Assembly: GCA_002722055.1 (NCBI GenBank)
Contig: PBKD01000014.1
Location: forward strand, 419,230-483,229
DNA length: 64,000 bases
Source of the DNA: Rhodospirillaceae bacterium
GTDB lineage: Bacteria > Pseudomonadota > Alphaproteobacteria > SHVP01
Reading direction: 5' to 3'
Shown: positions 11,954 through 59,046 of the stretch, one piece after another
Layout: every line of letters begins with the position of its first letter
How positions within the stretch are numbered: position 1 is the first letter of the stretch
Made by a program: the position numbers and the translations under genes
The notes under the pieces: generated by a model
The model's input: the letters and a program-made list of their open reading frames with translations, nothing else
The model's database searches: none
What the model was told of the DNA's origin: nothing

Positions 11954-12685
11954 TCATATTTTTTTTAACTGTCTTTCTGCATTTATTACCTCTTCTGGAG
12001 TGCCTACATGCAACCAATTACCTGAATAAATTATACCATAAAGCTTATTTTTTTTAATAGACTCATCCCAAATTTTATTAATTGAAAAAGCGTTAGCTGG
12101 TAAATTAAAAAATTTAGAAGTGTTTGCAAGACATAGTCCAGTATATATGTAACGTTCTGAGTTATTACCTCTAACCCTGGTTATATTATTATATTTATTT
12201 ATATTAAAATCACCTGAACCTTTATAATATTTTGCCTTTTCTAATGGGAATAATAATAATAAAAAATCCATTTTTTCTGGATTCCATAGGCTTATCATCT
12301 TATTCATTATGTTGATTTCTTTATCTACTCTAATCGTATCAGAATTTAGTATAAAAAAGGGATTTGAAGATATTAAATTTATTCCATTTACAATACCACC
12401 TCCAGTATCAAGAAGCTTATCAGACTCAATAGAAAATTTTATTTTTAATTTTTTTGAAATCTTTGACTTCTTATTGAGGTAAGATTCTAGCTTCTGTGAT
12501 TTGTAATGAAGATTTATGACTACATTATTAATTCCAAAATTTATTAAGTTTTCAAGTGAATACTCAATCAACGGTTTATTATTGACCTTAACTAATGGTT
12601 TTGGAATATCATGGGTTAAATGTTTCATTCTTTTCCCTAGACCTGCAGCTAGAATAAAAGCATCAATGTTAATTTTTTTATCCAT
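11954..12685 (-). CDS. sugar-phosphate nucleotidyltransferase, MurU-like (N-acetylmuramate-1-phosphate uridylyltransferase family)
   Basis: 243 aa with the N-terminal ILAAGLGKRM…PKPL nucleotidyltransferase motif; sits in the conserved position between the APH-like kinase and addB. Confidence 0.6.
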   Translation of the reverse strand: MDKKINIDAFILAAGLGKRMKHLTHDIPKPLVKVNNKPLIEYSLENLINFGINNVVINLHYKSQKLESYLNKKSKISKKLKIKFSIESDKLLDTGGGIVNGINLISSNPFFILNSDTIRVDKEINIMNKMISLWNPEKMDFLLLLFPLEKAKYYKGSGDFNINKYNNITRVRGNNSERYIYTGLCLANTSKFFNLPANAFSINKIWDESIKKNKLYGIIYSGNWLHVGTPEEVINAERQLKKI

Positions 12686-13694
12686 TTAATTTAGATATTT
12701 CTTCAGGTATAAAATATTTATAGGAATCAGCTAAATCTTTAAGTTCTGGGTTTTTTAAATTATTTTTTAAATTTTTCCATACTCTATTCATATGTTTTTG
12801 ATAACTTAATTTATTATCTCTTAATTTTAATCTTGCAAAAACGCCCAGAATTCTTGTATTTCGTTGAGCGCCAACACAATCATATATTAAATTAAACTCA
12901 TCTAACGTCCCTTTAAAAAATTGTAGGTAACGTTTCTTTAATTTATTTTGTAATTTTTCACTTACAGTAATTCTGGCATCCTGAAGTAAAGAAACAAGAT
13001 CATATACTGCTGGACCTATTAAAGCATCTTGAAAATCTAAAACACCAACCCTTTTAAAACTTGAACGGTCGTTTAACCAAACTAAGTTATCTATGTGATA
13101 GTCAAAGTGAGTAATTACATTAGATGCAGAGTGGATTTTTTTTGCTATTATTGACCAGCTATCTATGAAGTCTTTTTTTAATTTTTGATTTTTAGTTTCA
13201 CCAAAGTAATACGGTAGAGTCCAATCTAAAAATATTTGGACCTCATCCAAAATTCTTTTCTCAGAAAAAACCTCTAAGTTTGACGGCAAATCTGCATCCT
13301 GTAAAATTTTTAAAACATCAATAGCACTCTCATACAATAAGTCATATTTAGAATTATTTTGTATAAAATTATTAAATGTTTCTCTACCAAAATCTTCCAA
13401 TAATACAAAGCCTTTATCATGATCTACTTTAAATATCTCAGGAACACTTAAATTTATTTCCTTTAAAATATTTGCTACATTTAAAAATCTTTCTAAATTA
13501 ATAAATTCTTGATCATCCATTAATATCATACTCACTTCTTGATTATATAACCTGTGATATCTTCTATGAGAAGCATCACTCTTCATCAATACTAATTGAT
13601 CTGAACTGATATTATTTTTTGTCAGGAAATCTTCAATAAGATGTAATTTTTTTTTAATTACCATAACCAATTTTTCTATTTTTCCATTTCCCAA
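12678..13694 (-). CDS. aminoglycoside-phosphotransferase-fold kinase, AmgK-like (anomeric MurNAc/GlcNAc kinase family)
   Basis: 338 aa with the catalytic loop HFDYHIDNLVW (HxDxxxxN) and the VLDFQDA metal-binding motif; conserved partner of the downstream nucleotidyltransferase. Confidence 0.6.
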   Translation of the reverse strand: MGNGKIEKLVMVIKKKLHLIEDFLTKNNISSDQLVLMKSDASHRRYHRLYNQEVSMILMDDQEFINLERFLNVANILKEINLSVPEIFKVDHDKGFVLLEDFGRETFNNFIQNNSKYDLLYESAIDVLKILQDADLPSNLEVFSEKRILDEVQIFLDWTLPYYFGETKNQKLKKDFIDSWSIIAKKIHSASNVITHFDYHIDNLVWLNDRSSFKRVGVLDFQDALIGPAVYDLVSLLQDARITVSEKLQNKLKKRYLQFFKGTLDEFNLIYDCVGAQRNTRILGVFARLKLRDNKLSYQKHMNRVWKNLKNNLKNPELKDLADSYKYFIPEEISKLNG

Positions 13695-14248: not shown

Positions 14249-14956
14249 ATGAATAAAGCAATTGCTCTTGTTGATGATGATAGAAATATATTAACCTCTG
14301 TATCGATTGCTCTCGAAACTGAAGGCTTTAGAGTTCATACTTATACAGATGGATTAGAAGCTATCGAGGGACTAAAAAAACAACCTGTAGAGTTAATTAT
14401 TCTCGATCTAAAAATGCCAGTGATGGATGGTATGGAAATGCTTTCTCAATTGAGAAAAAATAGCAAAATTCCTGTTATAATTTTGACCTCAAAAGATGAT
14501 GAAATAGATGAAGTCCTCGGCTTAAAAATGGGAGCAGATGACTATATTAAGAAACCCTTTTCCCAAAGATTGCTAAATGAAAGAGTGAGAACAATTTTTA
14601 GAAGAATCTCTAATGAAAAAAAGAATATCCAGAAAGAAAATTTGGCCGGAGAAAAAGAAAAAATTTTAAGAGGTCAACTTGAACTGGATCTCCTCCAACA
14701 TAAGTGTACATGGAAAGATAAGGAGATCCAATTAACTGTTACAGAATTTATAATATTAAAAGACTTAGCTCTGAGACCTGGTCATGTTAAAAGTAGAGAA
14801 CAATTAATGGATATAGCATATAGTGATAATTCATACGTTGACGACAGGACTATTGACAGTCACATTAAGAGACTTAGAAAGAAATTTAGGAATATTGATA
14901 AATCTTTTGATTATATAGAAACTTTATATGGATTAGGTTACAAATTCCGTGAGTAA
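14249..14956 (+). CDS. OmpR-family response regulator (ChvI-like)
   Basis: 235 aa with a receiver domain (DDD…ILDLKMP…KDD) and a C-terminal winged-helix domain ([12 protein letters not shown]…YGLGYKF). Divergent from tsaE and followed by a cognate kinase and ahcY, as in the chvI-chvG loci of other alphaproteobacteria. Confidence 0.8.
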
Positions 14957-16565
14957 AATTGAAAATAAATATACAATTAGCCAAGATAAAAAAAGAAAAA
15001 AATGGAAAACAATAACTGTAAGAATTCTTACCATAAATATTTTTGGTTTATTGATTTTGATGGGAGGCATGCTCTACCTCAATCAGTTTAGGGAAGGTTT
15101 GATTAATACAAAAATAACCTCATTAACCAATGAAGGATCTGTGATTGCTGGAGCACTAAGTCAAAGCGCTTTAGATTTAGATAAAAATTATGATTATTTC
15201 TTAAATAGGTCAAAAACTAATTCTCTTCTTAGAAGAATGGTAAATACTACGTCAAAAAGAGCGAGGGTATTTAACTCCAAAGGTGTTCTTATATCAGATA
15301 GCAGGATTATTCTAGAAGCAGGAAGAAACGTGCAAGCTGAGGACCTACCTAACGATTTTTTTGAAAGTTTATTATATAAAATTTATACTCAAATCAAATC
15401 AATAATTCCATGGTCTAACTCCTATAATAATAAATTACCGAAGTACTCAGAGAATATTCCTCAGTTAGCTAGTGACTATAATGAAGTAAGTTCGGCACTT
15501 TTAGGTGAAACCCATTATGCTTTAAGAGCGTCTAAACAAAATCTTATTATTTCAGTTGCAGTACCTATTCAATCTTTTAAAACGGTTCAAGGCGCCTTAC
15601 TTTTATCTACAAATACCACAGATATTGACGATAGAGTATCTCAATTTCAAATGAATATAATTAAGGTTTCAGGCCTATCTTTAGTAATTACAATTTTACT
15701 ATCTTTATATTTATCAAATGTTCTAACAAGACCAGTTAAACAACTAGCAAGAGCTGCAAATAGAGTTAGAAATATAAATTATAGGCAAATTGAAATTCCA
15801 GACTTCACCTCTCGCGAAGATGAAATTGGTGACCTTTCCTATGCAATAAGAGACATGACTCAGGAATTATATAATCGTATTGATGCTATTGAATCATTTG
15901 CAGCTGATGTATCTCATGAAATCAAAAATCCTCTTACAAGCTTAGGCAGTGCAATAGATGCCTTCAACAAAGTATCAGATAAAAGTAAGCAGGAAAAACT
16001 AGTTAGCATAATGAAGCTCGACCTTAAAAGGATTGATAGATTAATAACAGATATCTCAAATGCATCAAGGCTAGATGCTGAGCTTTCAAGAAGTAAAATG
16101 AGACCAATAAATATAATAAAACTTTTAGAAACTATTTTAATTGTTTACAAAACAAAGGGGTGGAAGAATAAAATAATTCTTGAGTCAGACTTCAAAGAAC
16201 TTTGGATAACTGGTATAGAGGATAGTATTGGACAGATAATTAAAAATTTAGTTGATAATGCCATAAGTTTCTCTCCAAAATCAGAGTCTATAAAACTTAA
16301 AGCCTGGCAAATAAAAAATTATATTTTTATATCTTGTGAAGATGAAGGCCCTGGTTTCAAATTTAATGATATGGACAAAATTTTTGATAGATTTTACACA
16401 AAAAGGACCTCAGAAGAATCATTCGGAAAACATTCAGGTCTTGGACTATATATTTCAAAAAAAATCGCTAAAGTTCATGGTGGGAAAATTTCAGCTAAAA
16501 ATAAAAAAGATGCAATGGGAAACATAATTGGAGCAATATTTATTTTGGAGATTCCAGTTAAATAA
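14949..16565 (+). CDS. sensor histidine kinase (ChvG/ExoS-like)
   Basis: 538 aa with two TM segments flanking a periplasmic domain, then HAMP, an H-box [11 protein letters not shown] and an ATPase G-box DEGPGF…GLGL. The start is GTG, overlapping the regulator's stop. Confidence 0.85.
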
Positions 16566-16660
16566 ATAAATGATAATGAATTGATAAATTAATGTTGCAG
16601 CATTACATTTACACTGATAAACCATAACTAATATTGAAATAATGACTTAAAGAGTATCAA

Positions 16661-18067
16661 ATGACAAAACTTAATGACAAAGACTACGTAGTTCAGGATA
16701 TATCTTTGGCTAGGTGGGGAAAAGATGAAATATCTATTGCTGAAACTGAAATGCCTGGACTTATGAAACTTCGTGAAGAATTTCAAAATAAACACCCTCT
16801 TAAAGGCTCCAAAATAGCCGGTTGCCTACATATGACAATACAAACTGCTGTACTAATTGAAACTCTTAAGGATCTTGGCGCAGAACTTAGATGGTCATCC
16901 TGCAATATATTTTCAACACAGGACCATGCAGCAGCAGCAATAGCGGACCAGGGAATTCCTGTCTATGCAAAAAAAGGAGAGACCCTTGAAGAATACTGGG
17001 AATATGTTCACAAAATATTTGAATGGCACGATGGTGGAACTCCTAATATGATTCTTGATGATGGAGGGGATGCGACTGTTCTGATTCATTTAGGCATGAA
17101 AGCAGAAAAAAACCTTTCTATCTTAGACAATCCCCAGAACGAAGAAGAAGAAGTATTGTTTCAATCTATAAAGGACAAAATTAAAACTGATAAAGGGTGG
17201 TATAGTAGAATAGGTCAATCAATTAAAGGTGTTACAGAAGAAACTACAACAGGAGTTCTTAGGTTGTATGAAATGGAAAAAAAGAACGAACTTTTATTCC
17301 CTGCTATAAATGTTAACGATTCTGTTACTAAATCTAAATTTGATAATTTATATGGTTGTAGAGAGAGTCTAGTTGATGGAATCAGAAGAGGTACTGATGT
17401 AATGATGGCTGGAAAAATCGCTACAATTGCTGGCTATGGAGATGTTGGAAAAGGCTCAGCTCAATCATTAAGAAACGCTGGATGTAGAGTTATGGTTACA
17501 GAAATTGATCCGATTTGTGCTCTTCAAGCCGCTATGGAAGGTTTTGAGGTTGTCACAATGGAGGAAGCTGCAAAGAAGTCAGATATATTTGTAACTGCAA
17601 CAGGAAACAAGGATGTAATAACTATAGATCATATGAGAGAGATGAAAGATAGAGCTATTGTATGTAATATAGGTCATTTTGACTCTGAAATACAAGTTGC
17701 AGGACTTAGAAATATGAACTGGCATGAAGTAAAACCCCAAGTTGATGAGATAGAGTTTCCTGACGGAAAGAAAATTATACTTCTCTCAAAAGGTAGACTG
17801 GTTAACTTAGGAAATGCGATGGGACACCCCAGTTTTGTAATGAGTGCATCTTTCTCTAATCAAGTTCTTGCGCAAATAGAACTATGGAATAACCCTCAAA
17901 AGTATGAAAAGAAAGTATATGTTTTGCCAAAAAATTTAGATGAAAAAGTAGCGGCTATCCATTTGGATAAACTTGGGGCTAAGTTAACAAAACTAACTAA
18001 AGAACAATCAGATTATATCGGTGTAGATAATACTGGTCCCTTTAAGCCTGAATATTATAGGTACTAG
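16661..18067 (+). CDS. ahcY: adenosylhomocysteinase
   Basis: 468 aa with an SAHH-typical N-terminus ([28 protein letters not shown]) and the NAD-binding GYGDVGKG motif. Confidence 0.95.
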
Positions 18068-18326: not shown

Positions 18327-19151
18327 ATGTCAATTTCTACTATTTTAGGAGTGCTTTTCGGTCTAGGTCTAGTTGTTGGCTCTATTGCTATTTCAACTGA
18401 TAACCTTGCATCATTTATAAGCATACCTTCTATGCTAATTGTTGTAGGTGGGACACTGGCTGCCTCTTTTATTGGTTTTCAAGCTAGGTATGTTATTCAA
18501 GCATTAAAAGATATAGGAGCATTAGTAAAAAAAGAAACAGTTAATAGAAATATTCTTACTCAGGAAACAGGAAAAATAATTCGCTGGGGATTCTTGGTTA
18601 AAAAAAATGGAATCTTAGCACTTGAAAGAGAGGCTAAATCGGCAAAAGACCAGGATTATTATCTTAATTATGGAATAGACTTAGTGATTACAGGTTATAC
18701 TGCAGATGAAGTGAGAGATATGATGCAAGCTGCAGCTGGTGAAATGTTTGGGAGAGCAATGGTAAATGCAGATATCTTGAAAAATATGACAGCGGTTGCT
18801 CCAGCTTTTGGAATGATTGGCACACTAATTGGTCTTATCATAATGCTACAAAATATTGGGGGAGATCCCAATGGACTTGGAGCTGGCCTAGCTGTTGCGT
18901 TGCTAACTACTCTATACGGTGTTTTATTTGCACGAATGGTTTTCGCACCAGCAGCAACAAAAGCAGCTCAAAAAGCTGGTATTCAAAGATTTAGAAACCT
19001 CTTAGTTTGCGAAGGTTTAGCAATGCTTGCAGAACATAGAAGTCCTAGATATATACAAGATAGGATGAATAGTTTTCTCGATCCTGAAATCCACTACTCT
19101 ATTGATAAAAAAGGTGGCGGTGGAAAAGATAAGAAGAAGAAAGCTGCATAA
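18327..19151 (+). CDS. MotA/PomA-family proton-channel stator subunit
   Basis: 274 aa with four TM helices, a roughly 100-aa cytoplasmic loop between TM2 and TM3 (GIDLVITGYTADEVR), the conserved TM3 AVAPAFGMIGTLIGL and TM4 AVALLTTLYGV, and an unusual Gly/Lys-rich C-terminal tail. Confidence 0.75.
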   Translation: MSISTILGVLFGLGLVVGSIAISTDNLASFISIPSMLIVVGGTLAASFIGFQARYVIQALKDIGALVKKETVNRNILTQETGKIIRWGFLVKKNGILALEREAKSAKDQDYYLNYGIDLVITGYTADEVRDMMQAAAGEMFGRAMVNADILKNMTAVAPAFGMIGTLIGLIIMLQNIGGDPNGLGAGLAVALLTTLYGVLFARMVFAPAATKAAQKAGIQRFRNLLVCEGLAMLAEHRSPRYIQDRMNSFLDPEIHYSIDKKGGGGKDKKKKAA

Positions 19152-19172: not shown

Positions 19173-19832
19173 ATGGCAAAACTCCCACCCCCACCTCCCG
19201 AAGAAGAAGAAAAAGAAGATTGGCTTTTAACTTATGCAGATGCTATTACATTATTAATGGCGTTTTTTGTTCTGCTTTATACCGTATCGGATCCAAATAC
19301 TGAAAAATTTGAAGCTGTTACCAAAGGTATGGTTGAGTCATTAAAGGGAGGAAGTGTGAAAACACCATTTACTGACTTGTCAAAAGATCTATCTCAAGTT
19401 CAGTCAGAATCTGAATCTTCTAAAGTTGGATCAACCAAAAGAGGCCTGACTTTTGAATTCAAATCGAGAAAAATGTTTGAGCCTGGTTCTGCAAATATAG
19501 TTCCTGAGGGAATAAAAGCACTTGATAGAGTTGCACAACTTGTAACGTTTAGATTAGGCAAAAAAAATTATAAAATTGAAGTAGAAGGCCATACGGATGA
19601 TACCCCAATTAGCACCCCTCAGTTCCCATCAAATTGGGAATTATCTTCAGCAAGAGCATCCGCTGTTGTCCGTTTTATGATATCAAGGGGCGTACCAGGA
19701 GATAGACTTAGAGCTGTCGGTTACGCAGATACTAAACCTAAAGAAGGTTTTCCTTTTAAAGATAATGAAGGTTCCCCTATCCCAGAGAATCGTGAAGAAG
19801 GCAGACGAGTAGTAATAAGGATAGAGAGATAA
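19173..19832 (+). CDS. MotB/PomB-family stator subunit with an OmpA-like peptidoglycan-binding domain
   Basis: 219 aa. Pro/Glu-rich N-terminus, then the MotB signature WLLTYADAITLLMAFFVLL with the channel Asp, and a C-terminal OmpA-like domain (EGHTDDTPIS…NWELSSARA…GYADTKP). Confidence 0.75.
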   Translation: MAKLPPPPPEEEEKEDWLLTYADAITLLMAFFVLLYTVSDPNTEKFEAVTKGMVESLKGGSVKTPFTDLSKDLSQVQSESESSKVGSTKRGLTFEFKSRKMFEPGSANIVPEGIKALDRVAQLVTFRLGKKNYKIEVEGHTDDTPISTPQFPSNWELSSARASAVVRFMISRGVPGDRLRAVGYADTKPKEGFPFKDNEGSPIPENREEGRRVVIRIER

Positions 19833-19930
19833 CTAACAAATTATAATTATTTTTTTATATATTTTTCATTTTATAATCTATACAATTTAAATTCTTTTTT
19901 ACTTTAGAATATCTTGGGGAGGATAGGCCT

Positions 19931-21346
19931 ATGGTGGAAAATTGGGATGTTATTATTGTTGGAGCCGGAACAGCTGGAATACCAGCAGCTATTTTTGCAG
20001 GGCAAAGGGGAGCAAAAGTTTTACTTGTTGATGCAGCTGACAAAATAGGGGGCACACTTCATTTAACTACAGGACAAATGAGTGCAGCAGGAACTTCCCT
20101 TCAAAAACAATTAGGAATAAGTGATAATTCTAATGACCACTTTGATGATGTTATGCGAATTAGTGAAAATACAGCTGATAAAGACTTGGTTAGACTTGCA
20201 GTCGATAATGCTGCCGAGACATTTGATTGGCTTATGACCAATGGCTTTACTCCTCTAGATAATCACCCTGTTCTTGGTAATGCACATGAACCTTATAGTG
20301 AAAGAAGGTATTATTGGGGTCCGTTCGGTGGTATTTCAATTCTAGACGCAATCACACCCCTTCTAGATGAACAAATAGCATCCGGGAACGTTGTAGTGAG
20401 CCTAAGAACAAAATTAAAAAATATAATTTTAAATAAAAAGGAAGTAACAGGAATCGAAATACAAGCAGAAGATGGGACTAATGCTATTATCAATGGCAAA
20501 AATATAGTTCTTTCAACTGGAGGTTATTCTTCAAACCCTACATTATTCAAGGAATTAAGTGGTCCAACATTATATTGGAAAGGGGCATACCCCTTTTCTA
20601 ATGGTGAAGGCCTTACCATAGCAAATAATATTGGAGGGATTTTAAGAGGAAAAGAAAATTATCTATGTGGATATGGAGCTATATTAAAAAACTTTGATTA
20701 CCCTTCCGAGGTAACTACCAGGGTAATATCTCACCCGCATTTAAGACTTCCTTGGGAAATTCATGTAAATGTTGATGGGGAACGTTTTTTCCAGGAAGAC
20801 TATGACTCGGTTCATGTAAGAGAAAAAAAACTGCTTGAGCAGGATAAACTTAAGGCATGGATTGTTTTTGATGATGAAATACTAAAAGAATCCCCGCCTC
20901 TTCTAAAAGACTTTTCAAAGGAAGATATGATTTCATTCTTCTCAAGCCACCCTATGTTTTATTATGCTAATGATTTACAAAGTCTAGCAAATAAATCAGG
21001 TATTAATTCAGAAGGACTTATAAAAACAATAGAAGAATATAATTTCAATATTGAAAATAATCATCCAGATTCATTTGGTAGAGTGCATAGGCCTCTTAAA
21101 ATTGAAAAACCACCTTTTTATTCTATCTGCACTCATGGAGTTTCTATAACAAGTACAGTTGGTCTTTTGGTAAATTCAGAACTAAATATTTTAAAAGAAA
21201 ATGGAGAACCAATAGGAAATTTATTTGCAGCGGGAGAAATTTTGGGTTCAGGACAAACTATGGGCAAATGCTCTGCAGGTGGTATGATGCTTACCCCTGC
21301 GCTCACTTTTGGAAGACTTCTAGGGCAAAAATTTTTGTCTTGGTAG
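19931..21346 (+). CDS. FAD-binding dehydrogenase, fumarate-reductase/succinate-dehydrogenase-flavoprotein-like family (paralog 1 of 3)
   Basis: 471 aa with an N-terminal Rossmann DVIIVGAGTAGIPAA and a C-terminal NLFAAGEILG…GG…LTPALTFGRLLG typical of FAD_binding_2 enzymes (FrdA, KstD, TcuA-like). Confidence 0.7.
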   Translation: MVENWDVIIVGAGTAGIPAAIFAGQRGAKVLLVDAADKIGGTLHLTTGQMSAAGTSLQKQLGISDNSNDHFDDVMRISENTADKDLVRLAVDNAAETFDWLMTNGFTPLDNHPVLGNAHEPYSERRYYWGPFGGISILDAITPLLDEQIASGNVVVSLRTKLKNIILNKKEVTGIEIQAEDGTNAIINGKNIVLSTGGYSSNPTLFKELSGPTLYWKGAYPFSNGEGLTIANNIGGILRGKENYLCGYGAILKNFDYPSEVTTRVISHPHLRLPWEIHVNVDGERFFQEDYDSVHVREKKLLEQDKLKAWIVFDDEILKESPPLLKDFSKEDMISFFSSHPMFYYANDLQSLANKSGINSEGLIKTIEEYNFNIENNHPDSFGRVHRPLKIEKPPFYSICTHGVSITSTVGLLVNSELNILKENGEPIGNLFAAGEILGSGQTMGKCSAGGMMLTPALTFGRLLGQKFLSW

Positions 21347-21374
21347 AATATAAATTAATTTTCTGGAGATTAAA

Positions 21375-22796
21375 ATGTCAAATCAATGGGATGTAATTAT
21401 TGTTGGAGCAGGCAGCGCTGGCATACCTTCTTCTATATTTGCAGCTAATAGAGGAGCAAAAGTTTTACAACTTGAAGCAAGTGATAAAATTGGTGGAACT
21501 TTAATGTTATCATCAGGTCAGATTTCCGCAGCCGGAACAAAAAGACAAAAAAAAATGGGAATAGAAGATAGCCCAGACGAACATTATGATGATGCACAAA
21601 GAATATCAGAAAATACTATTGATCCGGTGCTTGGAAAATTAGCTATAGATAATGCTGGTGCAACATATGACTGGCTGGAGAGTATTGGCTATGAACCAAT
21701 CAAGAGCCATCCAGTAGCTGGAGGTGCTCATGAGCCGTATCTAAAAAGAAGATACCATTGGGCTGAAAATGCAGCCATAGCAATTCTTGATGTTTTAAAA
21801 CCTATACATGAAAAACTTGCTGATGAGAAAAAAATTGATTTACGTTTAAATACTAGAATGAGAGAAATAATAAAAGATAATTCTGGTTCTGTGATAGGTG
21901 TTAAAGCAGATACGCATGACGGAGTAAAAGAGTTTTATGGTAAAAATACTGTAATTACAACTGGAGGATATGCTCATAATAAAGATTTGTGGAATGAATT
22001 AACTCCAAAAATCCCACTCAGATCTTGGACAAATGAATTTAGTTTAGGTGATGGTTTGATCGCTGCAAGAGAGATAGGCGCAGATTATGATGGATCAGAT
22101 AAATTTTTATGTACTTTTGCTGGTGTTCTTGAGAGACCAGAAGATCCATTTTCAACTTCATTAGGTATGCAATTCTCACCTCAAGTTAGAGAACCTTGGG
22201 AAATATATGTAAACAGTTATGGAAAAAGATTTGTTAGGGAGGATCACCCAAGTGTCCATATTCGAGAACATGCTTTATTAAAACAACCAAATCAAGAAAT
22301 GTTCATAATTTTTGATGAGAATATTCGCCAAAACGCTCCCTGTATAAACCCTCTGATGGAGAAAACAATTAATAATAAGTATGGCAATCATCCAAATTAT
22401 TCCAAATCTAAAACACTAACTGAGTTAGCTACAGCAATTAATGTACCTGAAAAAAATTTAATAGAAACAATTTCAAAATATAACTTTGCTGTAGAAACCG
22501 GAAATGACAAAGATTTTGGTAGAGTAAGAATGTTTGGTAAAATTGAAAAACCACCTTTTTATTCAATTCATGCTGGTGGAATAACAGTGGTAAGCCCAGC
22601 AGGATTAAAAACCAATGAGTCACTTGAGGTGATGGATACAAACGGTAAAATTATTCCTAATTTATTTGCTGCAGGAGAGGTCCTGGGTTTTACTAGGCTT
22701 TCTGGTTCAGCTTTTGTAAATGGTATGTCCTTAATGCCTGCTATTACTTTCGGGAAACTTCTTGGAGAAAAAATTCTTCATTGGAAGGAGAATTAA
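21375..22796 (+). CDS. FAD-binding dehydrogenase, same family (paralog 2 of 3)
   Basis: 473 aa, collinear with paralog 1 throughout (DVIIVGAGSAGIPSS…HEPY…REPWEIYVN…KPPFYSI…NLFAAGEVLG). Confidence 0.7.
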   Translation: MSNQWDVIIVGAGSAGIPSSIFAANRGAKVLQLEASDKIGGTLMLSSGQISAAGTKRQKKMGIEDSPDEHYDDAQRISENTIDPVLGKLAIDNAGATYDWLESIGYEPIKSHPVAGGAHEPYLKRRYHWAENAAIAILDVLKPIHEKLADEKKIDLRLNTRMREIIKDNSGSVIGVKADTHDGVKEFYGKNTVITTGGYAHNKDLWNELTPKIPLRSWTNEFSLGDGLIAAREIGADYDGSDKFLCTFAGVLERPEDPFSTSLGMQFSPQVREPWEIYVNSYGKRFVREDHPSVHIREHALLKQPNQEMFIIFDENIRQNAPCINPLMEKTINNKYGNHPNYSKSKTLTELATAINVPEKNLIETISKYNFAVETGNDKDFGRVRMFGKIEKPPFYSIHAGGITVVSPAGLKTNESLEVMDTNGKIIPNLFAAGEVLGFTRLSGSAFVNGMSLMPAITFGKLLGEKILHWKEN

Positions 22797-22801
22797 GATT
22801 T

Positions 22802-23563
22802 ATGAATAATTCTTTAATTAATAAAACAGCATTAGTAACAGGAGGTGGCGGACCGGCAATGGGTAGCTCACATTGCAATAAATTAGCAGAATTAGGAGCA
22901 CATGTTATTGTGCTTGATAAAAGAAAGGATAAGGCACAAGCAGTATCAAATAAAATCAGAGAAGATAATGGTTCTTCTGAATACATCACTTGCGATATAA
23001 CAAATATAAATGAAGTCAATGAAGCTCTTGACATAGTCACTAATAACTCCCCAATAGATATACTTGTTAATCATGCAGGAATATCTGGAATGTCATTACC
23101 ATTTGAAAAAGTTACAGAGAAAATTTACGATACAATGATGACTGTTAATTTAAAGTCTATGTTTTTTATAACACAAAAATTAGTTTCAAATATGAAGAAA
23201 AATAATTGGGGAAGAATTATCAATATTGCATCAGATTTTACAATGTATGGTAGCCCACTTGCTTCACACTATACTGCTTCAAAATCTGGAATATTAGGGC
23301 TAACTAAAAGTTGGGCTCGTGAATTAGCACCATGGAAAATATGTGTAAATGCAGTTGCACCAACATTATTAAAAAGTGAGTTAACTCTTGCCAGTGTTGG
23401 GGAAGAATTCTTGAATAAAGAGTCAAAAAGTGCCCCAATGGGATCTTTACCAAACGCTAATGATGTTTCTGAACTAGTCGCATTTCTTGCAAGTCCTTCC
23501 TCAAAAGCAATAACAGGTCAAACAATCAGTCCAAACGGTGGAAGAACTATAGTAGGAATTTAA
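22802..23563 (+). CDS. short-chain dehydrogenase/reductase (SDR)
   Basis: About 253 aa with the TALVTGGGG…G glycine-rich NAD(P)-binding loop, NHAG, and the catalytic S…YTASK. The start was chosen at ATG 22802, which is preceded by GGAAGGAG. Confidence 0.85.
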   Translation: MNNSLINKTALVTGGGGPAMGSSHCNKLAELGAHVIVLDKRKDKAQAVSNKIREDNGSSEYITCDITNINEVNEALDIVTNNSPIDILVNHAGISGMSLPFEKVTEKIYDTMMTVNLKSMFFITQKLVSNMKKNNWGRIINIASDFTMYGSPLASHYTASKSGILGLTKSWARELAPWKICVNAVAPTLLKSELTLASVGEEFLNKESKSAPMGSLPNANDVSELVAFLASPSSKAITGQTISPNGGRTIVGI

Positions 23564-23573
23564 ATTCTATAAA

Positions 23574-24971
23574 ATGGAGTTCGAACTTATAATCATTGGG
23601 GCAGGTATGGCTGGTTTGCCATGCTCAATTAGAGCAGCAGATAGAAATAAAAAAGTTTTATTAGTAAATAAAAATAAAAGTATTGGTGGTAAATTATCAA
23701 GAAGCACTGGACAAATAGCGGCAGCTGGAACAAATCTACAGAAGAGGCAAAATATTTATGATTACCCAGATCTACATTTTAAAGAAGCATGGGAAATATG
23801 TAAGTCAACAGCTGACCAAAAATTGCTCAGACTTGCAATAGACCACTTAGGTGAAACAGTAAATTGGTTAGAAAAAATTGGCGTTACTTTTCCGGATAAT
23901 CATCCTGTTATCACATATCAACATGACATTTACTCTACAAGAAGATATCAGTGGCCAGTTGGTTTCGGAAAAGAGATTTTAGATAAAATATTGCCTATAA
24001 TTGATAGATTTATTTCTTCTAAAAATATAACATTACTAAATCAAACTACTCTAGTCGATTTTATTGAAAATAATAATGTAATTGAAGGAGTTGTTTTATT
24101 AAACAATGAAGGAAAAAAATTAAAATATTATTCAAATAATATTGTATTAACTGCTGGGGGTTATACAAATAATGAAAAACTTTTTACAAAATATTCCCCA
24201 AAATCTTTCTTATATACTCCAAAATTTAATGGATCTGAGGGCTTAGTTCACAAAATAGCGGAAAGAAATAATTTTAAAATTGATGGAGGCGAACTATATA
24301 AAGGTATGATTGGAGGGGTGCTTCAAAAAAGTTCTGACAAGCATTCTGTATCAGTTTCAATAAATACGATCCCTCAAGATAGACAACCTTGGGAAATCTG
24401 GGTCAATTCTCAGGGGTATAGGTTCATGCGTGAAGATCATCCTAGTGCCGACTATAGAAGGCATAAAGTAAATGAACAAAATATGCAAAAATTTTTTATA
24501 ATTTTTGATCAAGGAATTTTTATTAATGCTCCACCCATCTCATTGACAAATGATGGCGGGTTAAAAGGTCATATTAATAATCAAGTCTCTTTAACTAGGT
24601 ATACTTCTATTAAAAAATTAGCTTATGAAATGAATATTGATTTTCAAGCACTCCTAAATACTATAAATGAATATAATAACTCAGTTAATAAAAATAATGA
24701 TACTTTTGGAAGAGAGCATTTGCCAAGAGAAATAAATAATCCACCATTTTATTGTATTGAATCTGTTGCTTTTGCATTACCCAGCCCTGCTGGTATAGCA
24801 GTTAATGAAAAGTTGCAAGTTTTAAATAATGATAATATCCCAGTAAGAAATATTTATGCTGCAGGTGAAATAATAGGAAATACTAGAATCATGGGCGAAC
24901 ATTATATTGCAGGTATGGGAGTGGGCCCTACTCTAGCTTTTGGCAAATTGCTAGGGGAAAATTTGAAATAA
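23574..24971 (+). CDS. FAD-binding dehydrogenase, same family (paralog 3 of 3)
   Basis: 465 aa, the most divergent paralog, but it keeps IIGAGMAGLPCS, TGQIAAAGT, RQPWEIWVN, NPPFYCI and NIYAAGEIIG. Confidence 0.7.
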   Translation: MEFELIIIGAGMAGLPCSIRAADRNKKVLLVNKNKSIGGKLSRSTGQIAAAGTNLQKRQNIYDYPDLHFKEAWEICKSTADQKLLRLAIDHLGETVNWLEKIGVTFPDNHPVITYQHDIYSTRRYQWPVGFGKEILDKILPIIDRFISSKNITLLNQTTLVDFIENNNVIEGVVLLNNEGKKLKYYSNNIVLTAGGYTNNEKLFTKYSPKSFLYTPKFNGSEGLVHKIAERNNFKIDGGELYKGMIGGVLQKSSDKHSVSVSINTIPQDRQPWEIWVNSQGYRFMREDHPSADYRRHKVNEQNMQKFFIIFDQGIFINAPPISLTNDGGLKGHINNQVSLTRYTSIKKLAYEMNIDFQALLNTINEYNNSVNKNNDTFGREHLPREINNPPFYCIESVAFALPSPAGIAVNEKLQVLNNDNIPVRNIYAAGEIIGNTRIMGEHYIAGMGVGPTLAFGKLLGENLK

Positions 24972-31571: not shown

Positions 31572-31973
31572 TTAGAAACCTACATTACCTCCTTTATGCT
31601 TTCTTTGTCTTTCTTTAACATTTTCTAGAAGATTATCCAGTAACCCTTCTTCTAAATCAATTGCTATCTGTCTTAACGCTTTAACAGCTTCAACTCTATT
31701 TGGAAGTCTAATTTTTGTTTCTTTTCCATCTAAGGGTATTAATTGGTTTTTATACCTAATTGATAATAAACAAGTACCACTAGACTCTTCACTTATCCAA
31801 TCAGATTTTTTAAGTGTATAAGTTGCAGACTCTATTAAAGATAATTGTTTTCTGGCATTTCTGGCAACAATTTTAGATTTTTCTCTAATAGTAGTTCTTC
31901 CTTTTATTTTACCTAACTCAGCTTCAATTCCTTTATTTTTTAAGTGAGTTACTATACTAAATTTTTCGCCCAT
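31572..31973 (-). CDS. hypothetical basic protein, no family recognised
   Basis: 133-aa ORF with good coding look (Lys/Arg-rich; ends KHKGGNVGF), isolated between two long, extremely AT-rich spacers. Confidence 0.35.
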   Translation of the reverse strand: MGEKFSIVTHLKNKGIEAELGKIKGRTTIREKSKIVARNARKQLSLIESATYTLKKSDWISEESSGTCLLSIRYKNQLIPLDGKETKIRLPNRVEAVKALRQIAIDLEEGLLDNLLENVKERQRKHKGGNVGF

Positions 31974-36303: not shown

Positions 36304-36885
36304 ATGAAAAAAGTTAATGATTTGTATGAAAAGAGAGTTAAAACTCTAAAAAATATTATCAATAAAAAATTTAAACCCTCTATAAAAATAAATTACAAAA
36401 AATCATCAGACGAGGTTGTTAATCAGATAAAAAAAAATATGTTGGAAAATAATATTTTAGAAGAAAATGAGATTTATAAAAAAATACTTACAATAAAAAG
36501 AGACTTACATTATTTATTTGAAATAAATAATAGCAACGGATATTTTTTTAAATATGATAAAAAAAGATATTCCGAAATAGAGAGATTAGAAGGTCATCCA
36601 GTTTCTGGAGGAATATTTATAAATATCTTGTTTAAATCAGATGAGATATTAGTGACAGAAATCACAAGAAAAAAAGATTCAAAAGAACCTTTATATAATA
36701 ACCATGATCATAAAACTATTTCGATTTTAAAGAAGGGCAAATTACGTTTACTAATTGATGACGATACTTTTATAGCTGAGAAAGGGGATCTTTGGATCTA
36801 TAAACCAAATAATCACCATTCTATAGAAGCTTTAGAAAACAGTGTTGAATTATCAATAAAATTTCCACCAGTTAAAACTTGGTAG
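36304..36885 (+). CDS. hypothetical protein, possibly cupin-like at the C-terminus
   Basis: 193 aa. The N-terminal half is Lys-rich; the C-terminal half (GKLRLLIDDDTFIAEKGDLWIYKPNNHHSIEALENSVEL) resembles a cupin beta-barrel. Confidence 0.3.
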   Translation: MKKVNDLYEKRVKTLKNIINKKFKPSIKINYKKSSDEVVNQIKKNMLENNILEENEIYKKILTIKRDLHYLFEINNSNGYFFKYDKKRYSEIERLEGHPVSGGIFINILFKSDEILVTEITRKKDSKEPLYNNHDHKTISILKKGKLRLLIDDDTFIAEKGDLWIYKPNNHHSIEALENSVELSIKFPPVKTW

Positions 36886-56539: not shown

Positions 56540-57139
56540 TTAATCTAGGTCTGAGATAAGAGAGTTCCTTAAATTATCATTAATTTTTTCTGAATAAAAA
56601 TACTCTGTATGATCAAAAGAAATTATAAATGGTTGACTAAAGTCCTTAATTAATTCTTTCTGTTTATTTGATAAAGGAAAATGCAAAAAGTGAACAGCGG
56701 AAGTTTTGCCATCTGATCTTGTTCTCTCAACATCATGTTCAGAATTAGCTAAAACTGAGTCTTCTCCAATAATCAATTTTATGCAATTCTCTATCCCTGA
56801 TACTTTTCTTAGAAAAATTTCTCTCTTTTCCTTAACATCTAATTCAAACATTAGAGTTGCCACTATTTCTGAACCACTAGGAACAAGCGATCTATAAGCT
56901 TCAATTTCTTCTTGAGCTTGTTGGAACCCACCTTTTTCAATATAAATCATTTCGTGTATTTGGTGCCAAATAGTTTCATAATTTTCAAAGAAGAAAGTTG
57001 CGTAGGGGCCAACGGACAATCTCCTGTTTCTTTTGGTTTCTACTATTTTTGTCTTTTTCTCTTTTCTAACTTTTTTATAACTCTCAGGATGGAGAATATC
57101 ATCTATTTTTATAGTTTTTTTTATATTATTCATTTGCAT
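56540..57139 (-). CDS. DUF3501-family protein
   Basis: 199 aa, the last gene of a rubrerythrin / Fe-S protein / DUF3501 operon; a family call by pattern memory, not by computation. Confidence 0.5.
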   Translation of the reverse strand: MQMNNIKKTIKIDDILHPESYKKVRKEKKTKIVETKRNRRLSVGPYATFFFENYETIWHQIHEMIYIEKGGFQQAQEEIEAYRSLVPSGSEIVATLMFELDVKEKREIFLRKVSGIENCIKLIIGEDSVLANSEHDVERTRSDGKTSAVHFLHFPLSNKQKELIKDFSQPFIISFDHTEYFYSEKINDNLRNSLISDLD

Positions 57140-58472
57140 AACTTTCCGCTAATATCTCAATTGGGTGATAGGTGCTTATTTTATATTTATTATTATTTGT
57201 TTCATTGGCTATTTCACAAAGATGTTGAGCCGCTAGAGGACATTCTGACACTATAACTGTATCTTCAGAGGAAAAGATTTTTTTTGATGCCATTCTTCCA
57301 TATTTCTTTGCCATGGGATATGTATTTTTTTTGACACCAAATGAACCCCCGTGCCCAGAACATTTATCTATTATTTTTATGTTTAAATCTGGAATGTTTT
57401 TCAGCATATCAACAGATTTAATGCCTATGTTTTGAGCTTTAGTATGACAAGCTATATGAAGAGATATATTGTTTTTCTTAATATTTTTTCCAAAAATAAA
57501 ATCTTCTTCTTTGGATATGTCTGATACATACTCACAAATATCTTTAGTAGCAGAACTAATCTTTTTTAACATATCATTTTCAGGGTCTAATAGTTGCCAT
57601 TCTGATTTAAGCATTAGACTACATGAGGGTGTAAGTGTTAAAATTGTGTAGCCTTTATTAACCCATGGTAGTAAATTGTTTGATATTCTTTTGGCTTTAC
57701 CAAGAACTGATGGAAGATCTCCAGCTTCTAATTTAGGCATACCACAGCACTCTGGATAAACAAACTCTACAATTATATTATTTTTCCTTAAAACTTTAAG
57801 TGCGGCTGAAGCAACTCGCGGCAAATTATAATTTACAAAGCATGTTGTATAAACCACAACCTTTCTTCTTTCTAATCCTGGCATACCATGATTTGTATAT
57901 TTTATCCTCTTTAGAAATTTATCAAATGTCTCCCGATTAAACTTTGGCAACTTAGCATCTTTATGAATGCCTGCAAAAAATTGTATTAATTTTCTAGATA
58001 TAATATTTTTTTTTGAAAAAAACCAATTTAAAATTGGGGCGAAATATGATCCAATTTTTCCAGTTAAATCTGTATTAAGTATAAATTTATTTATCAGTGA
58101 TAACCCGCTTTTTTTGATTTTTTTTGCATATCTATATCTTAACATTAAGTGTGGAAAATCAATGTTAAATTCATGAGGTGGCACATATGGACACTTTGAT
58201 AAAAAACACAAATCACATAAAGTACATGCCTCTACTACTGAATTAAAACTAGAACTATTGACAGAATCTAATTCACCCGTTTCAGATTCATCAATTAAAT
58301 CAAAGAGTCTCGGGAAAGAATCACACAGATTAAAGCACCTCCTACAACTATGACACACATCAAATACTCTACGCATTTCTGCATCTAGTTGTGATAAATC
58401 ACTAAAGCTAGCTTCCTTCCAGTTTAACGGATGCCTTGTAGGCGCACCTAAGCCTCCTTCTTTGGATGACAA
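57126..58472 (-). CDS. heterodisulfide-reductase-related (HdrD/GlcF/GlpC-like) Fe-S protein with two 4Fe-4S motifs and two CCG cysteine-rich domains
   Basis: 448 aa with CHSCRRCFNLCDSFP and CTLCDLCFLSKCPY ferredoxin motifs, then CCG-type repeats (…TTCFVNY…PECCGMP…; …ACHTKAQ…KCSGHGG…ECP). The start is probably TTG. Confidence 0.8.
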   Translation of the reverse strand: MSSKEGGLGAPTRHPLNWKEASFSDLSQLDAEMRRVFDVCHSCRRCFNLCDSFPRLFDLIDESETGELDSVNSSSFNSVVEACTLCDLCFLSKCPYVPPHEFNIDFPHLMLRYRYAKKIKKSGLSLINKFILNTDLTGKIGSYFAPILNWFFSKKNIISRKLIQFFAGIHKDAKLPKFNRETFDKFLKRIKYTNHGMPGLERRKVVVYTTCFVNYNLPRVASAALKVLRKNNIIVEFVYPECCGMPKLEAGDLPSVLGKAKRISNNLLPWVNKGYTILTLTPSCSLMLKSEWQLLDPENDMLKKISSATKDICEYVSDISKEEDFIFGKNIKKNNISLHIACHTKAQNIGIKSVDMLKNIPDLNIKIIDKCSGHGGSFGVKKNTYPMAKKYGRMASKKIFSSEDTVIVSECPLAAQHLCEIANETNNNKYKISTYHPIEILAESYANE

Positions 58473-58491
58473 AACTTACCTCTAAAGATTG

Positions 58492-58527
58492 AAGGAGAAT
58501 ATCTAACTGAAAATAAATATTCTCCTT
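58492..58527 (-). other. intercistronic stem-loop (11-bp stem) between the rubrerythrin and Fe-S protein genes
   Basis: AAGGAGAATAT…(14-nt loop)…ATATTCTCCTT perfect inverted repeat in the 67-bp spacer; a possible partial terminator or mRNA-stability element. Confidence 0.4.
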
Positions 58528-58539
58528 AGATTAAATTTT

Positions 58540-58962
58540 TTATTTATCTAAATTATCAAGTGCTTTTTGAAAACGTCCAGCATGAGATTTTTCTGCTTTT
58601 GCTAGAGTTTCAAACCAATCTGCTATTTCATCAAAGCCTTCATCTCTTGCAGTACGTGCCATTCCAGGATACATATCAGTATATTCATGAGTCTCTCCTG
58701 CTATAGCTGCTTTTAGGTTTGAAGCGGTGTCTCCTATAGGCTCCCCTGTTGCAGGATCTCCTACCTCTTCTAAAAACTCAAGATGCCCATGTGCATGGCC
58801 AGTTTCACCTTCTGCAGTTGACCTAAATACTGTTGAGACGTCATTAAAGCCTTCAACATCAGCTTTTTGTGCAAAGTATAGATAACGCCTGTTAGCTTGG
58901 GATTCCCCTGCGAAAGCATCTTTCAAGTTTTGCTCAGTCTTTGAATCTTTTAGTGAAGACAT
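58540..58962 (-). CDS. rubrerythrin (di-iron ferritin-like domain only, no rubredoxin domain)
   Basis: About 140 aa with [27 protein letters not shown] and the two ExxH di-iron motifs ([21 protein letters not shown]). The start was chosen at the ATG with an AAAGGA RBS rather than the upstream TTG in the track. Confidence 0.85.
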
Positions 58963-59046
58963 GAAATATCCTTTCAAAAAAATGTCTAGAATTTAAGAAT
59001 AATTTACAAGTAAAACATTTAGTCATTATGTAAGAATAAGTCAATA

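Follow-up and report, generated by a model that had tools for sequence, protein, structure and literature searches.

Known relatives and the cluster under study

The superfamily of flavoproteins that combines a flavin adenine dinucleotide (FAD) domain with a clamp domain includes the soluble fumarate reductases Fcc3 (flavocytochrome c3) and Ifc3 from Shewanella (PDB 1QJD, 1QO8), the urocanate reductase UrdA (PDB 6T85-6T88), the tricarballylate dehydrogenase TcuA and the 3-ketosteroid dehydrogenase KstD. Fcc3 has a tetrahaem domain and a signal peptide, UrdA has an FMN_bind domain, and TcuA is a single-domain, cytoplasmic dehydrogenase. In UrdA, the substrate carboxylate is contacted by Arg560 through a salt bridge and by His520 through a hydrogen bond; these and the other carboxylate contacts, together with the proton-donor Arg, are described as family-wide and essential in fumarate reductases (PMC7921117). 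In KstD, Tyr487 and Gly491 polarise the 3-keto group (PMC5348764). Superfamily clades that lack both arginines and have a Tyr at that site are still enoate reductases (Little et al., bioRxiv 10.1101/2022.12.26.521950). The present analysis concerns a cluster of three such flavoprotein genes, FAD1, FAD2 and FAD3, with a gene for a short-chain dehydrogenase/reductase (SDR) between the second and the third, located in a 64,000-nucleotide stretch of a Rhodospirillaceae bacterium assembly (GCA_002722055.1, contig PBKD01000014.1, positions 419,230 to 483,229; hereafter the window).

FAD1, FAD2 and FAD3 belong to one uncharacterised clade of this superfamily. The reading favoured here, held with about even confidence, is that of a cytoplasmic module in which three non-redundant FAD-dependent C-C dehydrogenases (or ene-reductases) are associated with an NAD-type SDR and act, probably oxidatively, on substrates other than fumarate. 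The substrate class would be set apart from fumarate, urocanate, tricarballylate and steroids. An earlier note on this DNA had described three flavoprotein open reading frames (ORFs) of 471, 473 and 465 amino acids (aa), the last two of them separated by an SDR gene, all in the same direction. All four lie on the forward strand, and the gene calls and coordinates were found to be as it gave them.

Family placement and fold

The assignment of the three proteins to the FAD_binding_2 superfamily, already made in the earlier note, is right (E ~1e-41 for each). Among the curated NCBIfam models, TIGR01813 (flavo_cyto_c) gives 190.1, 227.5 and 176.0 bits for FAD1, FAD2 and FAD3 against a cutoff of 285.45, and for the TcuA model NF006130, the cutoff of which is 369, the values are 173.5, 132.2 and 116.1 bits; both models align over the full length. 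Vinyl phenol reductase is also among the best curated models; the other TcuA model, TIGR02485, gives 81, 59 and 61 bits (cutoff 372.55), and KstD, ChcC, NadB and SdhA/FrdA are lower. For KstD and ChcC, the scores do not exceed ~139 bits against cutoffs of 675-1000; regarding KstD membership itself, at most 133 bits are obtained against cutoffs of 788-793, with the alignment in two separate stretches. The SdhA/FrdA/NadB models align with the N-terminal ~200 residues only (43-45 bits, cutoffs 450-570), and no Succ_DH_flav_C C-terminal domain was found in the flavoproteins by Pfam. Every NCBIfam score being under its cutoff, no characterised orthologue group is matched, as had been anticipated.

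Among solved structures, the closest relatives are Fcc3 and Ifc3 (E 1e-31 to 1e-47) and UrdA (1e-20 to 1e-43), KstD and Osm1 being much weaker; FAD2 in particular matches Fcc3 with E 4e-47 and UrdA with 8e-43. FAD2 was modelled with AlphaFold2 from an alignment of 37 sequences (predicted local distance difference test score, pLDDT, 95.1; predicted template modelling score, pTM, 0.92), and with this confident model Foldseek retrieves UrdA first (template modelling (TM) score 0.78/0.81, 25 % identity) and then Fcc3. KstD and cyclohexanone dehydrogenase reach TM scores of ~0.75-0.78 at only 19-20 % identity, and SdhA/FrdA are far behind (E ~1e-21 versus 1e-45 for UrdA). The KstD- and TcuA-like character proposed in the earlier note holds at the level of the superfamily, but KstD is more distant from all three proteins than flavocytochrome c3 and UrdA are. 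For FAD2 and FAD3 this is also true of TcuA, while the TcuA score of FAD1, its second-best model, is near its flavocytochrome c score.

The window proteins share with Fcc3 and Ifc3 the two-domain fold (23-30 % identity), a non-covalent-type FAD site and Arg381. Unlike Fcc3, they have neither a tetrahaem domain nor a signal peptide, and Fcc3 lacks the extra H-E-P-Y..R-R-Y-x-W loop of the family. No multihaem domain, FMN_bind domain or export signal can be found in the window flavoproteins: the Rossmann motif starts at residues 4-6 and Pfam finds FAD-binding families only. UrdA, although the top structural match, differs by its FMN_bind domain, which is absent from these cytoplasmic proteins. 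TcuA resembles them in length, in its single-domain organisation and in being cytoplasmic (21-27 % identity) and, like FAD3, has a Tyr at the Arg544 position of Fcc3; in contrast to the family, it keeps a His at the His365 position and has no Arg381 equivalent. No gene for TcuB is found in the putative operon. The sole CCG-domain protein of the window, encoded 32 kb away, is GlpC-like (194 bits, cutoff 278) and was rejected as a TcuB, with 34-36 bits against TcuB cutoffs of 247 and 524. KstD and cyclohexanone dehydrogenase have the same fold at 19-23 % identity; these two, delta-4 KstD and ChcC1/ChcC2 are 40-130 residues longer than the window proteins.

In a neighbour-joining tree (200 bootstraps, with Fcc3, Ifc3, TcuA and KstD as references), the whole family is monophyletic with respect to all four references at 100 % bootstrap. 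No characterised member of the FAD1, FAD2 or FAD3 clades was found in the literature. In a cluster-member lookup, Microbispora is the only studied organism represented, with entries labelled just "FAD-dependent oxidoreductase", and an exact-sequence lookup of FAD2 returned no record. The plasmid collection holds no relative above 31 % identity, hence no annotated operon. It is extremely unlikely that the three proteins are ordinary, if divergent, members of a known family such as soluble fumarate reductase, TcuA, KstD or NadB/SdhA. The automatic annotation of relatives as "fumarate reductase flavoprotein subunit" and the full-length TIGR01813 and TcuA alignments would suit such a membership; the scores below all curated cutoffs, the monophyly apart from the references, the lack of TcuB, of Succ_DH_flav_C and of a haem domain, and the absence of the substrate ligands across ~270 homologues all stand against it.

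Active site

Flavin-domain sequences of Fcc3 and Ifc3 were rebuilt from HMMER output, with a numbering check that placed His365, Glu378, Arg381, Arg402 and His504 correctly, and were aligned with 272 family members; active-site columns were read over 277 sequences. PGAP-annotated TcuA and KstD references from plasmids were then added. The three carboxylate contacts of Fcc3 (His365, His504 and Arg544, the last of which we take to be Arg545 in the literature numbering) are all lost, and hydrophobic or aromatic residues are found instead. The His365 column holds Phe, Ser or Tyr in FAD1 types, Phe in FAD2 types and Leu or Ile in FAD3 types (Tyr, Phe and Ile in the window FAD1, FAD2 and FAD3). In the same order of types, the His504 column holds Ile, Thr or Val, then Val, then Met or Leu (Ile, Val and Leu in the window), and the Arg544 column holds Phe, Ala or Ser, then Phe or Tyr, then Tyr (Ser, Phe and Tyr in the window). 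A check on the carboxylate-binding Arg and His, which the earlier note had called for, shows that the fumarate reductase residues are absent from all three proteins; the UrdA contacts Arg560 and His520, in the columns of Fcc3 Arg544 and His504, are likewise missing from the family. Since the carboxylate ligands are lost, the canonical substrates are excluded.

Other columns are strongly conserved. Glu378 is replaced by Pro in 99 % of FAD1 types and in 100 % of FAD2 and FAD3 types, Arg381 (= Arg272) is Arg in 100 % of all three types, and Trp275-Glu276, directly after it, is invariant family-wide. The Arg402 column holds Val or Phe in FAD1 types, Ile or Val in FAD2 types and Ala in FAD3 types (Val, Ile and Ala in the window). 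Three residues past this column, Arg297 is conserved in 100, 86 and 100 % of the FAD1, FAD2 and FAD3 types; it sits in a hallmark motif, E-D-x-P-S-x-D-x-R-E, the first x of which is His in FAD2 and FAD3 types. A family-wide inserted loop, H119-E-P-Y122-x-x-R-R126-Y127-x-W129, has Arg126, Tyr127 and Trp129 invariant. The loop after AAGE contains position 442, where FAD1 types have Gln and the other two types Arg, and Asn264, Pro403 and Tyr444 are each 100 % conserved in the FAD3 clade. Judging from the alignment, the FAD site appears intact and of the non-covalent (Fcc3) type.

Regarding the sequence blocks quoted in the earlier note, FAD3 departs from several of them, with QHDIY in place of the AHEPY of the other two, NPPFYCI for KPPFYSI and NIYAAGE for NLFAAGE, and the block written (R/Q)PWEI is in fact a common R-x-P-W-E-I-x-V-N.

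When KstD is brought into the sequence alignment, at ~20 % identity, the Arg544 position corresponds to its Tyr487 equivalent, followed by the Gly491 equivalent. At the same level of identity, this column holds Tyr444-x-x-Gly447 in FAD3, Phe447 in FAD2 and Ser448 in FAD1, the Gly being invariant; on this alignment, FAD3 appears to have the Tyr-x-x-Gly arrangement of KstD and TcuA, in contrast to FAD1 and FAD2, which lack the Tyr. The tyrosine of the KstD GPYSD motif, taken as the equivalent of Tyr318, the catalytic base that acts with Tyr119, aligns with the invariant Ser293; with that assignment, the KstD base is absent. A further likeness, by description only, is to the gut cinnamate reductases CirA, CirC and CrdD, which are secreted respiratory reductases with extra domains and in which Tyr or Trp replaces the salt-bridge Arg, with ene-reduction chemistry kept; at this site, Tyr is constant in FAD3 types, while FAD2 types have Phe or Tyr. 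The clade-specific residues of the pocket suggest that the three enzymes differ in substrate or in the step they catalyse.

The SDR partner

The SDR displays TGGGGPAMG, NHAG, the Ser in NIASD and YTASK, which identify it as a classical SDR; YTASK and TGGGG had both been correctly noted before. Its ORF spans 22781-23563, but translation most likely begins at the ATG at 22802, a start in agreement with the N-termini of the orthologues and with an AAGGAG ribosome-binding site. Orthologues with 51-60 % identity are found at the same position in loci L088, L089, L093 and L094, with TGGGGPAMG and YTASK conserved, and the SDR is a conserved partner of FAD1 and FAD2. According to the coenzyme rules for SDRs, an Asp at the end of strand beta-2 indicates NAD(H). 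Such an Asp is conserved in all the SDR orthologues, and from this residue the enzyme is probably NAD-dependent. None of the FabG models reaches its cutoff (best 192 bits versus 222; cutoffs 222-333), and the best PDB matches are (3R)-hydroxyacyl-CoA dehydrogenase and FabG.

Proposed function and direction of catalysis

Hydride transfer at a C-C/C=C bond that has a carbonyl or carboxyl group as its neighbour is the most economical reading of these sequences. Each flavoenzyme would transfer hydride between FAD N5 and the beta-carbon of such a bond, with the alpha-proton handled by a clamp-domain residue, either Arg297 or, in FAD2 and FAD3, His291. The activating group would be bound by the new loop together with Arg442 (FAD2, FAD3) or Tyr444-x-x-Gly447 (FAD3). 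The SDR would interconvert a hydroxyl and a keto group, and in doing so make or remove the activation, and the module as a whole would oxidise alcohols and desaturate in successive steps, either on a single scaffold or on several related molecules. The logic of KstD and ChcC1/ChcC2, in which flavoprotein desaturases follow an SDR-made ketone, fits the gene content here.

With regard to direction, the cytoplasmic location of the proteins and their lack of any haem, FMN_bind or NADH-input domain make the oxidative (dehydrogenase) one more likely. A reductive role can be considered, in which the three proteins would be soluble ene-reductases for alpha,beta-unsaturated acids or ketones (acrylate-, cinnamate- or itaconate-like) serving detoxification or as an electron sink, as with yeast Osm1 or the gut Cir/Crd enzymes. 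We regard it as rather unlikely. The nearest relatives by sequence and fold, Fcc3 and UrdA, are reductases, the non-covalent FAD site is of the Fcc3 type, the enoate reductase clades without the canonical arginines mentioned above provide a precedent, and many FAD1-type relatives are extended, with a twin-arginine motif where inspected, like respiratory reductases. However, the window proteins lack any signal peptide, haem, FMN_bind or OYE (old yellow enzyme)/NADH electron-input domain, organisms of the MarineAlpha2 type are reported from normally oxygenated sea water (PMC8879329), and an NAD-type SDR partner better suits an oxidative sequence.

Several points weigh against an oxidative module as favoured here. 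The direction is inferred from domain content only. The assignment of Arg297 as the putative equivalent of the catalytic Arg402 involves a three-residue shift in the sequence alignment. Co-transcription of the four genes, which would form an operon, is read from their 5-28 bp spacers only. The SDR is a generic FabG-like enzyme and points to no substrate. No substrate-specific transporter, dedicated regulator or electron-transfer partner adjoins the cluster, the flanks of which are all housekeeping, and the commonest partner of the wider family, an atypical alpha/beta-fold protein, is absent, so that the marine cluster may work differently from its relatives.

A more specific proposal, speculative and improbable as it stands, is that the cluster encodes the core of an undescribed oxidation pathway of the order GCA-2701885/MarineAlpha2. 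There, the SDR and two to three specialised desaturases would successively oxidise and desaturate a constituent of the dissolved organic matter of the sea, alicyclic or a hydroxy acid, and possibly aromatise it, with a site built on the H-E-P-Y..R-R-Y-x-W loop, unlike characterised superfamily members.

Distribution and age of the three paralogues

MarineAlpha2_Bin1, which GTDB places in the uncultured order GCA-2701885, has a protein with 93 % identity to FAD1, and FAD2 and FAD3 have database entries of 100 % identity from a marine "Rhodospirillaceae bacterium" metagenome-assembled genome. FAD1-type and FAD2-type proteins are widespread, each with well over 100 homologues (44-58 % identity) from a variety of Proteobacteria and from some Actinobacteria, FAD2 orthologues at 52-58 % being found in many genomes. 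FAD3 types are rare: a word-indexed search yields ~11 proteins at least 42 % identical, and an exhaustive scan of 1.84 billion cluster representatives yields one other full-length representative at 48 % and the next at 37 %. At E<=1e-30 to FAD3, 149 representative clusters are found, a count that covers the family and its nearest outliers.

Pairwise identities are 43.3 % between FAD1 and FAD2, 36.6 % between FAD1 and FAD3 and 37.9 % between FAD2 and FAD3. These comparisons had been requested to see if the copies were near-identical; they are not, and identities of 37-43 %, which are also well beyond chance, rule out both an assembly artefact and a recent duplication. Bootstrap values are 92 % for the FAD1 clade, 100 % for FAD3 and 74 % for FAD2 with FAD3, with only 56 % for FAD2 alone. 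This pattern fits an origin of FAD3 from a FAD2-like ancestor, followed by faster divergence; FAD3 is a later addition, probably derived from a FAD2-like gene. Identity between the window genes and their L088 orthologues is 66 % for FAD2, 60 % for the SDR, 55 % for FAD1 and 48 % for FAD3.

The view of the earlier note that the copies are non-redundant, and their old age as well, are supported by pocket positions that differ systematically by clade and by the retention of all copies across very deep divergence. It is very unlikely that the copies are functionally redundant isozymes or that one of them, especially FAD3, is decaying. FAD3 does evolve fastest and is dispensable in the lineages of L093 and L094. 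However, all three proteins are intact and keep 49 family-invariant columns, FAD3 has strictly conserved pocket residues of its own, and it persists in a compact genome (93 % coding) and on either side of a large shift in guanine-cytosine (GC) content.

Synteny and locus organisation

The full order chvG ... ahcY, motA, motB, small ORF, FAD1, FAD2, SDR, FAD3 ... polA can be found in L088, L089/L090 and a JGI contig, which have 62-66 % GC as against ~31 % in the window. In the more distant L093 and L094, the order is that of the phosphoenolpyruvate carboxykinase gene (PEPCK), motA, motB, FAD1, FAD2, SDR ... polA, without FAD3, and L113 and L117 contain fragments of the motA-motB-FAD1-FAD2-SDR arrangement. 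FAD1-FAD2-SDR is an old unit, inherited vertically in a deep alphaproteobacterial clade, which gained the third paralogue later. FAD1 and FAD2 are two separate, widespread orthologue groups that were paired with the SDR before FAD3 joined. Given the conserved FAD1-FAD2-SDR core and the FAD3-less L093 and L094, the tandem triplication described in the earlier note is therefore the wrong picture.

A motA/motB pair is directly upstream of FAD1 at every cluster-bearing locus, whether preceded by ahcY or PEPCK. This pair is a constant syntenic neighbour whose functional tie to the cluster is putative; the rest of the 64 kb showed no flagellar genes. A role in housekeeping or biosynthesis rather than in nutrition, in which the enzymes might modify a lipid, a cofactor or a cell-envelope or flagellar component, would explain the fixed place of the cluster in the core genome by the stator-like motA/motB. 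The order motA-motB-FAD1-FAD2-SDR near polA is indeed kept from 31 % to 66 % GC despite a changed upstream gene, there is no transporter or regulator, the dnaA-dnaN-recF-gyrB genes are ~17-23 kb away, and the SDR is most like FabG and (3R)-hydroxyacyl-CoA dehydrogenase. Such a role is nevertheless unlikely: polA is equally syntenic yet functionally unrelated, the conserved order may reflect vertical inheritance alone, and single-copy FAD1- and FAD2-type homologues elsewhere lie amid catabolic-looking genes (MFS, TonB-dependent receptors, solute-binding proteins, aldehyde dehydrogenases, hydrolase-like partners).

In the window, the spacers between FAD1, FAD2, SDR and FAD3 are 28, 5 and 10 bp, not 10 to 28 bp as previously given, with a plausible ribosome-binding site at each start (Table 1). 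The polA gene, on the reverse strand, converges on the cluster and ends 4 bp past FAD3. The window is 93 % coding with a median spacer of 15 bp, and the GC fraction of the four genes (0.31-0.36) is inside the range of their neighbours. The AT-rich spacer upstream of FAD1 could be the site of the operon promoter. A promoter scan returned 35 sites against 30.9 ± 4.9 in shuffled sequence, which is no better than chance, and no promoter-like match of at least 9/12 in this spacer. A terminator scan gave none at the operon end, and an Rfam search of the window found nothing.

Table 1. Positions of the genes and other features discussed (window coordinates unless a locus is given).
Feature	Position	Strand	Description
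FAD1	19931-21346	+	471 aa; cytoplasmic two-domain FAD flavoprotein, FAD1-type clade; FAD_binding_2 E 3.4e-41
FAD2	21375-22796	+	473 aa; most conserved paralogue, FAD2-type clade; FAD_binding_2 E 1.3e-41
SDR	22802-23563	+	253 aa; classical SDR; adh_short E 7.8e-47, 159.7 bits
FAD3	23574-24971	+	465 aa; fast-evolving paralogue, narrow lineage; FAD_binding_2 E 1.3e-41
AT-rich spacer upstream of FAD1	19833-19930	+	98 bp; carries ribosome-binding site GGGGAGGA
MotA/PomA-like	18327-19151	+	NCBIfam MotP/PomA match below cutoff
MotB-like	19173-19832	+	NCBIfam MotD/MotS match below cutoff
NTP-transferase and APH-family kinase	11954-13694	-	side by side; Pfam domains
chvI, chvG, ahcY	14249-18067		ahcY directly after chvG
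ORF	31572-31973	-	133 aa; no Pfam or NCBIfam match
ORF	36304-36885	+	193 aa; no Pfam match
gyrB, recF, dnaN, dnaA	41779-48054	-	
DUF3501, GlpC-like protein, rubrerythrin	56540-58977	-	GlpC-like CCG-domain Fe-S protein at 57129-58472
Small ORF between motB and FAD1	L088:5927-6136; L089:5902-6126; L093:8145-8396		69-83 aa
FAD1 homologue contig	L116:1-3126		metagenome contig, 31 % GC
Atypical alpha/beta-fold protein, examples	L010:10498-11313; L119:2963-3769; L126:6662-7630; L132:8844-9713; L004:11605-13290		
Extended FAD1-type homologues	P0265; P0230; P0213; L095:10001-11548		

The upstream flank contains pyrF, trpFBA, accD, folC, addAB, murU/amgK-like genes, tsaE, chvI/chvG, ahcY and the MotA/MotB-like pair. 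Downstream are polA, an ABC ATPase, fhs, a LIV-type transporter and heptose-biosynthesis genes, and then gyrB, recF, dnaN and dnaA. The window probably includes or adjoins the replication origin, which would make the flavoprotein cluster origin-proximal. The catabolic theme put forward earlier, with osmolytes or organic acids as candidate substrates, finds no backing in this gene context, given housekeeping surroundings with no transporter or dedicated regulator.

In the high-GC relatives, a conserved ORF of 69-83 aa lies between motB and FAD1, with the motif HADLVARFG..APTFKQxLNRV and no Pfam match on record; the window is without it, and the AT-rich spacer stands in its place. This small ORF was considered as a Tat "hitch-hiker" subunit, a possibility dropped since it has no twin-arginine motif. 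In the same relatives, chvG and ahcY are separated by hprK, rapZ, EIIA-Man and HPr, whereas in the window ahcY comes directly after chvG; an apparent loss of this PTS-Ntr regulatory block from the low-GC lineage would agree with genome streamlining. On the low-GC metagenome contig L116, a FAD1 homologue 75 % identical to the window FAD1 is preceded by a tandem copy of the atypical alpha/beta-fold protein in place of motB; among close relatives of low GC there is thus either another FAD1-type locus of different organisation or a rearrangement. Elsewhere in the window, the NTP-transferase and APH-family kinase genes lie side by side, a pair that presumably recalls MurU/AmgK of peptidoglycan recycling. 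A DUF3501 gene is grouped with those for the GlpC-like protein and rubrerythrin, and two further ORFs have no Pfam match, the shorter having no NCBIfam match either.

Neighbourhoods in the wider family

Neighbourhoods of the wider family were surveyed at ~90 loci, the ORFs of high-GC loci being filtered by third-codon-position GC; a reference-genome scan by Rossmann-type patterns gave mostly irrelevant loci, of which L008-L018 were useful. The commonest neighbour of the FAD1-type and FAD2-type genes is an alpha/beta-fold protein, found within three genes at 27 of the ~90 loci. In 25 cases it is directly adjacent, 16 of these on the same strand, with gaps often of -3 to +8 bp, and it is often translationally coupled. 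A first comparison of eight such proteins gave only generic similarity; the larger survey showed a real adjacency in relatives. The protein belongs to the haloalkane-dehalogenase/epoxide-hydrolase branch, with a nucleophile elbow G-x-H-T-G, in which His replaces the Asp of haloalkane dehalogenases, and an oxyanion motif H-Q-T-P; its activity may be something other than hydrolysis. There are also tandem fusions of it, 495-620 aa long. Since the 64-kb window contains no copy of the G-x-H-T-G protein, an alpha/beta-hydrolase partner was set aside as an explanation of the locus.

Other recurrent neighbours are MFS transporters, TonB-dependent receptors, SBP_bac_5 proteins, aldehyde dehydrogenases, CN-hydrolases, MDR ene-reductases and a methyltransferase-like protein. 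They give the family a catabolic flavour elsewhere, which does not transfer directly to the marine cluster. Regarding location, 75 of 129 FAD1-type proteins have an N-terminal extension of more than 25 residues, and the six longest, which were inspected, all have a twin-arginine motif (...RRQxLIGASSAA...), implying a predicted Tat export of those homologues. No N-terminal extension is found in the window flavoproteins or in the FAD1 copies of other clusters.

Significance

Nothing known is overturned by these observations, as flavoprotein subfamilies without a characterised member are no rarity and conventional chemistry is probable here too. Should the inference be correct, a separate FAD_binding_2 clade of rather small size is mislabelled by public pipelines as "fumarate reductase flavoprotein subunit" while being unable to bind fumarate in the canonical way, and this label would distort metabolic reconstructions of marine and soil bacteria. 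With their own pocket signatures, the three co-resident paralogues constitute a natural set for the specificity determinants of the scaffold. That a streamlined oceanic genome has kept them for so long suggests an ecological importance of their substrates.

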